From Enterobacteria phage ATK47, in the sequence record NC_055708.1: a stretch of 64,000 bases of DNA. One strand, given 5' to 3'. Positions 46,637 through 63,263 of this stretch are shown here, one piece after another. A program made the translations under genes and the position numbers. The stretch's first letter is position 1, and each line of letters opens with the position of its first letter. The notes beneath the pieces were generated by a model that did no database searches, had not been told where the DNA came from, and was given only the letters and a program-made list of their open reading frames with translations.

Positions 46637-46941
46637 TGACCACTATTGAAGTTTTTGAATATTGTTATAACAGCCCAGTATGCAATAAAAGGGCTCTTGT
46701 AGAAAATTATGAGATTTACCATTTTAAACCTAAACGATATCGTTTGACTAAAGGCCCGTTCGCAGGGCAGCAGGTTCTTTGTACTGCTCCTAATGCACGG
46801 TTGATGACTAGTATTCCGCATTTCAAAATGGAATTTATTGATGGGCCATTTAAGGGATTAATCACTCAAAGTTTAATGGCGTTTAATTCCGACCCATTTT
46901 TGATTAAAGAAAAATCTTGGATAAATTTATTTTCTAATTGA
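46633..46941 (+). CDS. hypothetical protein (102 aa)
   Basis: ATGA overlap with upstream P-loop gene. Confidence 0.5.
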   Translation: MMTTIEVFEYCYNSPVCNKRALVENYEIYHFKPKRYRLTKGPFAGQQVLCTAPNARLMTSIPHFKMEFIDGPFKGLITQSLMAFNSDPFLIKEKSWINLFSN

Positions 46942-46947
46942 GGTTAT

Positions 46948-47310
46948 ATGAAAGCATATCAAATTCTTGAAGGTGAACATAAAGGCACTATTTATTTTGA
47001 AGACTGTACTCAAGCCCGGATTATTGTCTCTAAGACTTTTAAAGAAGACGCTATTGTAGATCCAGAAATTTTCTACGGTTTGAATGCTCGTGAAATTGAA
47101 ATTGAACATCAACCTAAAGTTAAAATTGAAGGTGGTCAACACCTGAACGTTAACGTTCTGCGTCGCGAAACTCTGGAAGATGCAGTTAAGCATCCAGAAA
47201 AATATCCGCAGCTGACCATCCGTGTATCCGGTTATGCAGTTCGCTTTAACTCTCTGACTCCGGAACAGCAGCGCGACGTTATCGCTCGTACCTTTACCGA
47301 GAGTCTATAA
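46948..47310 (+). CDS. autonomous glycyl radical cofactor (GrcA/YfiD-like)
   Basis: C-terminal [25 protein letters not shown] glycyl-radical motif. Confidence 0.85.
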
Positions 47311-47534
47311 TGGCTAAATTGATTATAGAAGGGTCTGAAGATGTTTTAAAATGTTTTGCCGCCTGGTTTAGTTGCTCAGGCGAGCAATCATTCATTGAAG
47401 CATTTAGAATGGGTGATATTACTGGAAACTATCCGACAACTGATATCACTGTACGTGGATATGGTATTAATGAGCCTATCCAATTGGTCGAATATGACCT
47501 TGCCACAGATGAGGAAATTCCTTATGTCGATTGA
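47310..47534 (+). CDS. hypothetical protein (74 aa)
   Basis: SD GAGAG; ATGA junction. Confidence 0.5.
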   Translation: MAKLIIEGSEDVLKCFAAWFSCSGEQSFIEAFRMGDITGNYPTTDITVRGYGINEPIQLVEYDLATDEEIPYVD

Positions 47535-60510: not shown

Positions 60511-60923
60511 TGAGATATAGCCTTCGTTGTTTTATCGCAGCTTTAGTTTTTGCTATTATTCCATTCATTTGGAACAGCCAGAATACTTACATGGAAACTA
60601 AAGTAATTCCTGTGGAGGTAGTGGAATTAATCTCAGGACAATCTACAGGAAAATATTCTAAATTGGAATTTATTGCAGTCTATAAAGATGAGCAAGGACG
60701 AGTTTTTGACAGGCGTGTATCGCCATCGTTTTATACGCTTCTGAATAAAGGTGATACGATAGCTATAGAAATTCGTGAGATGGATATCAAACAAACTACT
60801 AAAGATAACTTGATTTGGTTCTTTGGTACAGTGTTGTTGGTTTCTATCTGTATCACAGGTTTTATTACATGTATTGTATTTGGCGTTGCATATTTAATCG
60901 ATGAAAGGAAAAATAATGTTTAA
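60510..60923 (+). CDS. membrane protein (137 aa)
   Basis: N- and C-terminal hydrophobic helices. Confidence 0.55.
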   Translation: MRYSLRCFIAALVFAIIPFIWNSQNTYMETKVIPVEVVELISGQSTGKYSKLEFIAVYKDEQGRVFDRRVSPSFYTLLNKGDTIAIEIREMDIKQTTKDNLIWFFGTVLLVSICITGFITCIVFGVAYLIDERKNNV

Positions 60924-61179
60924 AGTGTACGGGTACGACTCTACTATTCATAAATGCATTTATTGCGATAATGCGAAACGATTGCTGACTGTTAAGAAAC
61001 AGCCATTCGAATTCATTAATGTTATGCCGGAAAAAGGTGTTTTTGATGATGAGAAAATTGCTGAGCTTCTGGCTAAGCTTGGACGTGAAACACATGTTGG
61101 ATTGACGATGCCTCAGGTGTTTGCTCCTGACGGAAGTCACATTGGTGGATTTGACCAACTACGAGAATATTTTAAATGA
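60916..61179 (+). CDS. nrdC: glutaredoxin (NrdC)
   Basis: MFKVYGYDSTIHKCIYCDNAKRLL; near-identical to recalled T4 NrdC; CxxC active site. Confidence 0.95.
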   Translation: MFKVYGYDSTIHKCIYCDNAKRLLTVKKQPFEFINVMPEKGVFDDEKIAELLAKLGRETHVGLTMPQVFAPDGSHIGGFDQLREYFK

Positions 61180-61472
61180 GTATTGATTTAACTTTCCCTG
61201 GCCCTTATGACCAGGGTGAATTAGAAGCTTTATTATATCAAGAAATGTGCTCTCGTGCCAAGAACGATATTCAGTATGCTATCGATAATCCATGGGGCGA
61301 ATTTCGAGTAATGATGGGTAATCGAATCATCGGTGTCCAATGGCGATTCGTTGGCCTTGAGCCTGAGGACTATGAAGAAAACGAGCACGGTGACTGGATT
61401 CCCGTTGGTGAATATCACTGGGAATACGGTGGTCCTGATTTTGAAGTCTCTTGTTCATGGGTAGAACAATAA
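61176..61472 (+). CDS. hypothetical protein (98 aa)
   Basis: ATGA overlap with nrdC. Confidence 0.55.
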   Translation: MSIDLTFPGPYDQGELEALLYQEMCSRAKNDIQYAIDNPWGEFRVMMGNRIIGVQWRFVGLEPEDYEENEHGDWIPVGEYHWEYGGPDFEVSCSWVEQ

Positions 61473-61490
61473 CCTGCGAGAAAATTTTAA

Positions 61491-61847
61491 ATGACATATT
61501 CATTAAATCTTAAAGATTTCCAGGATGTATACGAAGTTTGTGCCAATGAACTTGGTCCTGATGCTCCAACTATTATTGAAGTTTTAAATGTGCTACCTTC
61601 AACATTAGCTTACGAAGCCAAATCATGGGGATGGAACGACACTGTCGTTCGTGATGACCTTTACATCCTGATGAACGATATGATTGTTAAAAAGGCAGAA
61701 CCGGTTGCACCAATGGTTACCATTACCGTTGAAGAATATAATCGCCTGCAAGCCATTGAAGAGCTTCTGTGGAACATTGAATGTGACCTGCCGTCAGGGC
61801 TAGAATCCTGGATTGATTATGAAGAGCTCAATAAACTCCGGGGTTAA
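61491..61847 (+). CDS. hypothetical protein (118 aa)
   Basis: ORF in operon context, weak SD. Confidence 0.55.
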   Translation: MTYSLNLKDFQDVYEVCANELGPDAPTIIEVLNVLPSTLAYEAKSWGWNDTVVRDDLYILMNDMIVKKAEPVAPMVTITVEEYNRLQAIEELLWNIECDLPSGLESWIDYEELNKLRG

Positions 61848-61975
61848 ACCGTGGTATTCTGCTCGATGGGAGACTGTCGAGCCAGACGTTGAAACGGTTT
61901 ACAACGACGAAGAACCATGTTATGATGAACCTTCAATAAATGAATTAATTGATATGGAAATGGGAAGAGATTATT

Positions 61976-62146
61976 ATGCAAGTTAAATTATTGTACCGTT
62001 TATTAAAAAACGGCAAACATGATTGGTATTTGCTTATTAAAACCGATCCGAATTTTTTCTCTGGACAACCATTTACAGTTCGTCCTACTAAACGTCAGCT
62101 TCGCAAAGCTAAACGTTCTCATCGTAACTTTTATAGAGAATATTGA
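61976..62146 (+). CDS. small basic protein (56 aa), paralogue of 62571 ORF
   Basis: ATG 61976 with SD GGGAAGAG; shares KNG-x3-W...RPTKR-x-hR-x2-KR-x-HR-x-FY with 62571 ORF. Confidence 0.45.
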   Translation: MQVKLLYRLLKNGKHDWYLLIKTDPNFFSGQPFTVRPTKRQLRKAKRSHRNFYREY

Positions 62147-62147
62147 T

Positions 62148-62561
62148 ATGAATATTTCTGAAACTCGCGGTAAATGGTTCAAGATTGTTAAAGAAGATGA
62201 AGAACTACAAGTCAAGTTTCCTGAATTAAAGAAAGGAACAATCATCAAGGTAATTGGTACTACTACCGAAGATGGTTATGGCGACCATGGCATTATCGAA
62301 GTGATGTTGAACACAGGTGAGAAACTTTGCATCTATGACCGTGATACTTCTCTTTGGTGCTTCTGGGAATCCCATTCAATAGATGAACTCGAAGAAATTG
62401 ACCAAGTAGTTTGTGATGGTGGACTTGGCGAATTCGAAGGTGAACGTATTTCTTATGCTTTAGCTAAATTAGCTGGTCAAGAAAATAATGACGGTTATGA
62501 AGGTAATCTGATGCAAGCCGCAGCGGAATACATTGAATACTTAGAAAGACGTTTAAGTTAA
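62148..62561 (+). CDS. hypothetical acidic protein (137 aa)
   Basis: Flanked by the two small basic paralogues. Confidence 0.55.
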   Translation: MNISETRGKWFKIVKEDEELQVKFPELKKGTIIKVIGTTTEDGYGDHGIIEVMLNTGEKLCIYDRDTSLWCFWESHSIDELEEIDQVVCDGGLGEFEGERISYALAKLAGQENNDGYEGNLMQAAAEYIEYLERRLS

Positions 62562-62570
62562 AGGTTTATT

Positions 62571-62750
62571 ATGAAAACTGAACTATTTTATGGTGAAAGA
62601 AAAAATGGGCAAAAATCCTGGAAATTTATTATGATTGGGGCCCCAAACAATCCAAATATGAGGACTTCAATTATTTCAGAAACTCGTCCTACTAAAAGAA
62701 TGATTCGTCAGTATAAGCGTTTCCATCGAGACTTTTATAACGTTTACTAA
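62571..62750 (+). CDS. small basic protein (59 aa), paralogue of 61976 ORF
   Basis: SD AAAGG; below ORF track cutoff; conserved RPTKR...FY motif. Confidence 0.45.
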   Translation: MKTELFYGERKNGQKSWKFIMIGAPNNPNMRTSIISETRPTKRMIRQYKRFHRDFYNVY

Positions 62751-62752
62751 AT

Positions 62753-62760
62753 TATAAATA
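62753..62760 (+). promoter_or_regulatory. T4-type late promoter TATAAATA (gene 49)
   Basis: Exact TATAAATA 29 nt upstream of gene 49 ATG. Confidence 0.6.
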
Positions 62761-62783
62761 CCCTTATCTATTTAAGGTAAGGG
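62761..62783 (+). promoter_or_regulatory. SD-occluding hairpin upstream of gene 49
   Basis: CCCTTA / TAAGGG 6-bp stem, 11-nt loop; right arm is the SD region 6 nt before ATG. Confidence 0.5.
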
Positions 62784-62789
62784 TTTATC

Positions 62790-63263
62790 ATGTTATTATC
62801 AGGCGCAAAATATAAAGAAGAAAAACAAAAATTTTATGATGCACAGAACGGTAAGTGTCCTATTTGCCACCGTGAATTAGACCCTGATGTTCAAGGTAAC
62901 CATCTTGACCATGACCACGAATTAAAAGGGCCAAAAGCCGGTAGAGTTCGTGGTTTACTATGTAACCTGTGCAATGCAGCAGAAGGTCAAATGAAGCATA
63001 AGTTCAACCGTTCCGGTTTGAAAGGTCAAAACGTTGACTACTTAGAATGGCTTGAAGCTCTTCTTGCTTATTTGAAACAAGATTATTCTGATAATAATAT
63101 CCATCCTAATTTTGTTCCGGATAAAACTAAAGAGTTCTCAAGACTAGGTAAAGAGGAAATGATGACCGAGATGCTTCAAAGAGGATTTGAATATAATGAA
63201 TCTGATACTAAAACACAATTAATAGCTTCATTCAAAAAGCAGCTTAGAAAGAGTTTAAAATGA
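62790..63263 (+). CDS. 49: endonuclease VII (Holliday junction resolvase)
   Basis: MLLSGAKYKEEKQKFYDAQNGKCPICHREL...; near-identical to recalled T4 gp49. Confidence 0.95.
   Translation: MLLSGAKYKEEKQKFYDAQNGKCPICHRELDPDVQGNHLDHDHELKGPKAGRVRGLLCNLCNAAEGQMKHKFNRSGLKGQNVDYLEWLEALLAYLKQDYSDNNIHPNFVPDKTKEFSRLGKEEMMTEMLQRGFEYNESDTKTQLIASFKKQLRKSLK

Follow-up and report, generated by a model that had tools for sequence, protein, structure and literature searches.

A and B, two small basic genes that bracket the pin gene upstream of gene 49 in Enterobacteria phage ATK47 (NC_055708.1), are ordinary duplicated accessory genes in a neighbourhood that recombines frequently. Both belong to the DUF7279 family, and the A-pin-B bracket descends from an old duplication of a complete gene. 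Across T4-like phages, the same segment offers a worked example of accessory-gene turnover, in which microhomology deletion, partial duplication, and recombination between paralogues can all be followed. One consequence is that T4 PinA, on which all biochemical work has been done, ends in 15 residues derived from another gene.

The window, that is, the whole 64,000-nucleotide stretch analysed herein, contains A, pin, and B within a co-directional block of early genes extending from nrdC to gene 49 (Table 1). The 2.4 kb around the trio is 100% identical to the record of ATK48 (KT184310.1), an RB69-like Mosigvirus of the Tevenvirinae. The first-pass annotation had described two small ORFs (56 and 59 aa) on either side of an acidic 137-aa ORF, and all three are present as described. 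It had also remarked that T4 carries pin nearby but that no match to pin could be made; the bracketed "cargo" gene is in fact the T4-type pin itself. This gene matches Pfam Inhibitor_I24 with 165.4 bits (E 8e-49; cutoff 27) over model positions 2-136 of 136 and phrog_2167 with an E-value of 1e-51, and it is labelled pin both in the ATK48 record and in RB69. Inhibition of both ATPase activity and proteolysis by Escherichia coli Lon by the 161-aa T4 PinA is reported in literature cited by one paper (PMC8835725). The shorter, tail-less 137-aa Pin of the window is a predicted Lon inhibitor by family membership.

Table 1. Positions of the genes, repeats, and control elements of the A-pin-B segment in the window
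Feature	Position	Strand	Remarks
gp49.1 homologue	61813-61986	+	57 aa; phrog_2382 E 4e-28; gp49.1-like in KT184310.1 and RB69
ORF A	61976-62146	+	DUF7279 paralogue; 56 aa, pI 10.8; PF23945 54.5 bits; phrog_3272
Repeat copy 1 (in ORF A)	62080-62135	+	encodes RPTKR...FY; repeat search and local DNA alignment
phiE142 crossover site, ACTTTTATA	62127-62135 (A), 62731-62739 (B)	+	last 9 nt of the 56-nt repeat
pinA (Lon protease inhibitor), short Mosigvirus form	62148-62561	+	137 aa, pI 4.4; C-terminal end ...EYLERRLS
ORF B	62571-62750	+	DUF7279 paralogue; 59 aa, pI 10.5; equals RB69ORF087c; PF23945 50.7 bits; phrog_3272
Repeat copy 2 (in ORF B)	62684-62739	+	repeat search
Gene 49 control region	62753-62784	+	late promoter TATAAATA (62753-62760) overlapping a 10-bp hairpin (62760-62784)
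Gene 49, endonuclease VII	62790-63263	+	annotation in KT184310.1 and RB69; downstream module boundary

The genes of this segment are tightly packed. The gp49.1 gene extends 11 nt into ORF A, the TGA stop codon of ORF A lies 1 nt 5' of the pin ATG, and in other phages the stop and start codons of pin and its DUF7279 neighbour overlap. ORF B is the final gene 5' of the gene 49 control region. None of A, B, and Pin matched a PADLOC model at E<=1, and no sequence relatives of DUF7279 or PinA were found among solved structures.

That A and B are paralogues, as had been proposed from their shared motifs, was borne out by every comparison. The K-N-G-x3-W motif is present as KNGKHDW in A and KNGQKSW in B, and the C-terminal motif beginning with RPTKR reads RPTKRQLRKAKRSHRNFYREY in A and RPTKRMIRQYKRFHRDFYNVY in B. 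The two proteins share 39% identity (BLASTP E 4e-12). Their Smith-Waterman score of 102 is far above chance (23.2 +/- 4.7 in shuffled sequences; z 16.8), and none of 5000 shuffles reached it. Independently of one another, both proteins pass the gathering cutoff of Pfam DUF7279 (PF23945; 24.5 bits) over all 53 positions of the model, and both match the phrog_3272 profile along its whole length (positions 1-59 of 59), with E-values of 5.8e-27 (A) and 2.4e-29 (B). No other DUF7279 member was found in the 64-kb window.

DUF7279, or phrog_3272, comprises basic proteins of approximately 51-61 aa that are essentially confined to T4-like (Tevenvirinae) phages. A profile search of 1.84 billion representative proteins returned approximately three full-length clusters, a word-indexed protein search with B returned five matches, and a scan of IMG/VR viral contigs returned eight DUF7279 loci. 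Spurious repeat proteins that match the hairpin region alone were also returned by the profile search. A and B have the same size and charge as, and match over their full length, the catalogued members of the family (RB69ORF087c, RB32ORF078c-like proteins, and JS98 orf76). B occupies the same genomic slot as these relatives; ATK48 differs from them by having two copies, not in kind. The literature search found no paper mentioning DUF7279, RB69ORF087c/089c, or RB32ORF078c.

Both ORFs evolve under purifying selection. In Nei-Gojobori comparisons of orthologue pairs, dN/dS was 0.08-0.28 for B; A, set against a diverged lineage from metagenomes, gave 0.11-0.12. A and B are therefore real coding genes, and selection together with gene context suggests that they are translated. 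ORF A is unannotated in the ATK48 record and is a CDS in F31. In RB69, an extra A shifts its frame, and it is annotated there as a 38-aa fragment (RB69ORF089c) because the RB69 reference has a homopolymer of A7 instead of A6. A conserved and selected gene is absent from one annotation and truncated in the other reference by a homopolymer frameshift.

Two copies of a gene on either side of a third could also mark the joint of an insertion, and the first-pass annotation had likened the arrangement to a duplicated insertion joint. This likeness did not survive closer inspection. A and B are both complete genes, and their codon-aligned nucleotide identity is only 58%. The sole DNA repeat that they share is a direct repeat of 56 nt with 73% identity, which encodes the conserved C-terminal helix; it lies inside the coding sequences, and near-identical short direct repeats of the kind expected of a target-site duplication were not found at the borders. 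No inverted repeats were present in 61700-62900, and a Pfam and PHROG search of the six ORFs at 61176-62750 gave no match to a mobility family. Nor does the annotation of the identical record contain mobility genes, the neighbours being nrdC-region genes, 49.1, pin, 49, and nrdD. Low identity between the copies, a single repeat of 73% identity, and the absence of inverted repeats and of a mobility gene all argue for an old whole-gene duplication instead of an insertion joint.

The segment from nrdC to 49 was examined in approximately 20 related genomes and contigs, in which 49.1, DUF7279, Pin, and gp49 were mapped by HMMs. The arrangements share one template, 49.1 - (DUF7279 A) - pin - (phrog_13441) - (DUF7279 B) - 49, in which the bracketed elements are optional, and the gp49.1 slot upstream of pin or DUF7279 is kept in nearly all of the surveyed loci. 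T4 has 49.1-pin-49 with no free-standing DUF7279. The order pin-DUF7279-49 is found in RB33 and G50 (Tequatrovirus) and in Merlin (Moonvirus), and Moon has pin-phrog_13441-DUF7279-49. In JS98 and VR7 (Dhaka- and Gaprivervirus), DUF7279-49 is preceded by a pin that is split and permuted, with an ORF for its C-terminal domain ahead of one for its N-terminal domain. X20, F48, and KMB20 carry pin without DUF7279, PS2 carries a 62-aa C-terminal fragment of pin without DUF7279, and L022 (Dhakavirus-like) carries DUF7279 without pin. F31 has A-pin only. In S16 (Gelderlandvirus), 49.1 is followed by a DUF7279 gene, a 116-aa phrog_13441 gene, a second DUF7279 gene, and then a SegE-like homing endonuclease; both DUF7279 copies score 42 bits against the Pfam model. 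The S16 phrog_13441 gene was considered as a possible relative of Pin and rejected (hhalign probability 0.3%, E 0.18). The bracket of ATK48, A-pin-B, is also found in RB69; across relatives, A and B come and go independently of one another and of pin, which likewise speaks against an insertion joint.

B is the widespread copy: in Mosig-, Tequatro-, Dhaka-, Gapriver-, and Moonvirus, it directly precedes gene 49. It groups with the copies that fill this slot in Tequatro-, Dhaka-, and Gaprivervirus, to which it is 51-62% identical; A is equidistant from all of these (36-44% identity). Among the records inspected, A was found only in Mosigvirus-type genomes. A is an older and more diverged copy. 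In tblastn searches at >=80% identity, A was found in 144 phage records and B in 53, so that approximately two-thirds of A-carrying genomes lack B. Gene 49 gave tblastn matches in 1432 records.

At the DNA level, alignments resolved at least seven distinct alleles of this approximately 800-bp segment. In the first (G50-type), the TAA of a pin that ends with ...SFSDRAF overlaps the DUF7279 ATG. In the second (T4-type), a 132-nt in-frame deletion joins the pin codons ending ...SFSDR to the last 15 codons of DUF7279; this junction is contiguous in 365 phage records, including T2, T4, T6, RB3, and RB7. In the third (RB33-type), which is a partial tandem duplication, the pin 3' end recurs after the fused tail, and a complete DUF7279 gene comes next. 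In the fourth, which encodes the metagenomic protein P0019, the pin of a Mosigvirus runs into the last nine residues of B at a CGTTT microhomology; this pin::tail fusion arose independently of the T4-type. The fifth (F31-type) is a clean loss of B between TTA microhomologies, and the sixth, P0020, has a 1-nt deletion that fuses A in frame to pin and was recovered in two separate metagenome assemblies. In the seventh, phiE142, the sequence of A continues to ...HRNFY and is followed by the NVY-stop of B and the region downstream of B, pin being deleted. The crossover in phiE142 took place inside ACTTTTATA, which is common to both paralogues, and left one chimeric gene. The earlier impression that the paralogues resemble direct repeats around pin is thereby given substance: they serve as direct repeats, by ordinary recombination across short homologies rather than by a mobile-element mechanism.

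The C-terminal end of T4 PinA (UniProt P07068, 161 aa), MIQQYKRLHQMFYNT, matches both the DUF7279 HMM and phrog_3272 and is homologous to the end of DUF7279, which reads KMIRQYKRLHRMFYNT in G50 and RMIRQYKRFHRDFYNVY in ORF B. In the window, by contrast, pin and DUF7279 are unfused, and Pin stops 24 residues short of the T4 end. The T4 tail also differs from DUF7279 itself in having no sheet domain, and one or two of the conserved arginines are gone from it. The R-to-Q changes at conserved basic positions of the fused tail look like relaxed constraint rather than retained function. The bracket is a side effect of gene duplication within a segment whose turnover proceeds by short-homology deletions, and deletions with one end in pin and the other in DUF7279 have joined the C-terminal helix of DUF7279 to PinA repeatedly.

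Much of this was already known: the family is catalogued, pinA is a known gene, and this part of T-even genomes is known to be plastic, such that nothing here is new in kind. The literature searched contained nothing on the PinA C-terminus. The origin of the last 15 residues of T4 PinA from a neighbouring DUF7279 gene, and the many recombinant alleles, including the loss of pin mediated by the paralogues, appear to be undescribed in that literature.

The alternative that the bracket is a mobile cassette deserves to be weighed against the whole of this survey. Either pin would have entered a DUF7279 gene or a site beside one, with duplication of the joint, or A-pin-B would move as one unit. Paralogues in direct orientation do flank a gene that is variably present, pin was excised through the repeats in phiE142, and S16 has a second bracket around a different gene that adjoins a homing endonuclease of the GIY-YIG (SegE-like) type. 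However, the copies are full length and only 39% identical in amino acid sequence and 58% in nucleotide sequence, and dS between orthologues is saturated; saturation together with low A/B identity implies an old divergence, not a target-site duplication. Inverted repeats are, moreover, absent, the ORFs directly beside the trio include no transposase, integrase, or homing endonuclease, and pin keeps its slot between 49.1 and 49 whether zero, one, or two DUF7279 copies are present. The mobile-element or insertion-joint reading was rejected on the repeat identity and on the absence of inverted repeats and of a mobility gene, and we regard it as very improbable.

What A and B might do can be approached through a predicted structure. 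The AF2 model of B, computed from a six-sequence alignment, has a pLDDT of 88 and contains strands at residues 2-9, 15-22, and 31-36 and a C-terminal helix at 42-58. The predicted fold is a generic three-stranded sheet packed on a basic amphipathic C-terminal helix. A Foldseek search of the PDB with the B model returned nothing at E<0.001, and a search of BFVD returned uncharacterised proteins of T4-like phages only. In an alignment of nine members from six genera, the residues that are invariant after the start are T41, R46, K49, and R53; T41 is at the helix N-cap, and the other three are spaced so as to fall on the same side of the helix. Aromatic residues mark the C-termini (FYREY, FYNVY, and FYNT), and in the model they form part of the confident helix.

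An exposed helix face bearing R46, K49, and R53 would bind a polyanionic partner early in infection. The most likely single ligand of this face in A and B is, tentatively, nucleic acid; a host protein or an acidic one, for example PinA, could be the partner instead. A nucleic-acid-binding partner pair, the other likeness named in the first-pass annotation, would fit the charge of A and B and the conserved basic face of their helix. Small basic phage proteins that bind nucleic acid through an arginine-rich motif are exemplified by lambda N. DUF7279 is like lambda N and other arginine-rich-motif proteins of phages in its small size, a pI above 10, and an Arg/Lys helix face, but differs from them in having a folded sheet domain packed on the helix and no sequence similarity. 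A and B would serve dispensable accessory functions, their translation being coupled to that of pin. In natural genomes both can be dispensed with: B is missing from T4, F31, and the greater part of the A-carrying genomes noted above, and A is frameshifted in RB69. Such frequent natural loss implies that their function is conditional at best. Taken together, it seems reasonably probable that A and B are a DUF7279 pair whose bracket arose by duplication and short-homology turnover and whose basic helix face binds a polyanion.

The repeated association with pin raises another possibility, namely that the C-terminal helix of DUF7279 (...KRxHRxFYxxY-COOH) docks Lon or the acidic PinA, that A and B serve as decoys, anchors, or co-inhibitors, and that T4 PinA would have captured the docking module as its C-terminal tail. 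DUF7279 adjoins pin, on either side, in five genera and is translationally coupled to it; in-frame fusions with pin occurred three times independently, one of them fixed in the 365 T2/T4/T6-type records; and the proteins have complementary charges (net +9 to +11 for DUF7279 proteins versus about -15 for Pin). By analogy, there is also precedent for small proteins or degrons that address Lon via exposed aromatic or hydrophobic residues at the C-terminus. The 20-residue sul20 depends on Y19 and H20 for Lon (PMC8087443), in LarA a five-residue degron comes after a C-terminal helix (PMC10665427), and one Lon site may be common to PinA and HspQ (PMC8835725). Like DUF7279, the sul20 part of SulA, Caulobacter LarA, and E. 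coli HspQ are small and have a C-terminal helix or an aromatic-hydrophobic end. Unlike them, DUF7279 is strongly basic and shares no homology with them, while being tied genomically to a Lon inhibitor; the likeness could only be one of function.

Several observations weigh against this docking. DUF7279 survives without pin in phiE142, L022, and S16, pin survives without DUF7279 in X20, F48, and KMB20, and the adjacency could equally well be put as a position directly upstream of gene 49. The likeness to sul20 is a brief pattern noticed by eye, without statistics, and the R-to-Q changes described above fall within the very tail that would dock. For P0020, in which A and Pin are naturally fused and which was modelled in search of a fixed arrangement of the two, the AF2 result was of low confidence (pLDDT 48.7, pTM 0.40) and hence uninformative. 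We therefore consider it rather unlikely that the helix docks Lon or PinA, and unlikely that it is a portable Lon- or PinA-docking module that makes A and B additional Lon modulators beside PinA. If the helix were such a module, the PinA of T2, T4, and T6 would owe part of its binding to Lon to the captured 15-residue tail, and the tail-less RB69-type PinA would need free-standing DUF7279 proteins for full activity. The role of the tail is addressable with existing Lon assays and could give a first function for DUF7279.

The position of B suggests a different role again. As a basic RNA-binding protein, B might modulate the hairpin that masks the ribosome-binding site of gene 49 on early read-through transcripts. 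The sequence TATAAATA matches the consensus of T4 late promoters, and the hairpin that overlaps it covers the gene 49 ribosome-binding site with its 3' arm (RNA fold dG -12.9 kcal/mol, z -2.7). T4 is the phage in which the regulation of gene 49 was worked out, and the role of the hairpin in it was reportedly described by Barth et al. in 1988. Directly upstream of this late promoter and hairpin is the most conserved location of the family, and B combines a basic charge with a conserved face on its helix. However, neither copy A nor either of the S16 copies adjoins gene 49, and T4 has no free-standing DUF7279 copy at all. A contribution of B to gene 49 control is accordingly quite improbable, and the binding of a polyanion of some kind by the DUF7279 helix face remains our preferred reading. 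The hairpin region is itself nearly invariant across T4, RB33, G50, ATK48, and F31; in KT184310.1 it is labelled a "terminator".

The PinA protein of phages T4, T2 and T6 (161 aa) consists of the Pin core followed by the C-terminal 15 residues encoded by a DUF7279 gene (compare positions 62540-62750 of the window). With the G50-type phages, in which pin is followed by a free-standing DUF7279 gene, as the reference, the join between the two genes in T4, T2 and T6 is a 132-nt in-frame deletion, and the resulting pin::DUF7279 junction of the T4 type was found in 365 phage records. The 137-aa Pin of RB69 and ATK48 possesses neither the DUF7279 tail nor ...SFSDRxF, a C-terminus commonly found in other genera. 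In phiE142 (L026 3001-3215, IMG/VR copy), pin is absent and a single DUF7279 gene is a chimera of the two paralogues that flank pin in the window, ORF A and ORF B. The crossover site is a 9-nt sequence, ACTTTTATA, common to both paralogues (window 62127-62135 and 62731-62739).

Every deletion seen has the same right-hand limit, namely the promoter-hairpin element that precedes gene 49 (endonuclease VII). This element, which is named a "terminator" in the ATK48 record, shows almost no variation between T4 and Mosigvirus, and its hairpin covers the ribosome-binding site of gene 49.

Features of the pin segment, its upstream region and the T4 counterpart
Feature	Location	Strand	Remarks
98-aa ORF	window 61176-61472	+	phrog_4203 (E 5e-47); directly after nrdC; missing from the ATK48 annotation
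118-aa ORF	window 61491-61847	+	no annotation in KT184310.1
ORF A homopolymer run	window about 62005-62011		
T4 late-promoter consensus TATAAATA overlapping a 10-bp hairpin	window 62753-62790		
T4 pin	NC_000866 (locus L003), record 46897-47382		

A second, independent DUF7279 bracket is present in Salmonella phage S16 (L009 2501-4331), where a 116-aa gene of phrog_13441 lies between two members of the family and a SegE-like GIY-YIG homing endonuclease follows directly downstream; neither pin nor gene 49 occurs in this slot.

Pin itself is rearranged in several relatives. Among the Dhaka- and Gapriverviruses, it is represented by two ORFs in permuted order (JS98, L005 2029-2504; VR7, L007 1056-1501; also loci L020 and L023-L025), the first of which has 57 aa and matches Pin residues 88-136. 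In the Dhakavirus loci (JS98 and L024), the second ORF, 100 aa long in JS98, matches Pin residues from about 3 to 75; the 90-aa ORF occupying this slot in VR7 and the other Gaprivervirus-like loci gave no significant match to Pin. In Enterobacter phage KMB20 (L012 2545-2979), a 144-aa ORF starts like the N-terminal domain of Pin (HMM positions 1-40) and, judged by eye, appears to continue as an XRE-type helix-turn-helix segment; the C-terminal part of Pin resides on a separate 110-aa ORF.

Pin and ORF B also share a direct repeat of 15 nt, borderline against chance, whose copies TATTTCTGAAACTCG (window 62153-62167) and TATTTCAGAAACTCG (62672-62686) differ at a single position. The encoded peptide is ISETR in both cases; it lies at the Pin N-terminus in the one and forms residues 34-38 in the other, and the E is polymorphic, being V in RB69.

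The homopolymer run in ORF A is A7 in the RB69 reference (L002 2290-2300, NC_004928), as opposed to A6 in ATK48 and F31. The additional A shifts the reading frame of ORF A in RB69 and thereby accounts for the 38-aa annotation RB69ORF089c; it may reflect genuine variation or an error in the reference sequence.

Upstream, the ATK48 record holds no features across window positions 61180-61818. The 118-aa ORF matches phrog_3402, described as an "antitoxin from a toxin-antitoxin system", over its C-terminal 55 residues (E 2e-32), and it also gave weak matches to T7 gp5.9-like RecBCD inhibitor models (Pfam E 0.016). As its RB69 counterpart has only 58 aa, the ATK48 ORF is an N-terminally extended or fused version. 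Further upstream (L001, KT184310.1, locus positions 1-1524, before window position 60901), the homologues of nrdC.2, nrdC.3 and nrdC.7 are each named "thioredoxin" in the same record, labels that look like a carry-over from gene names rather than real assignments.
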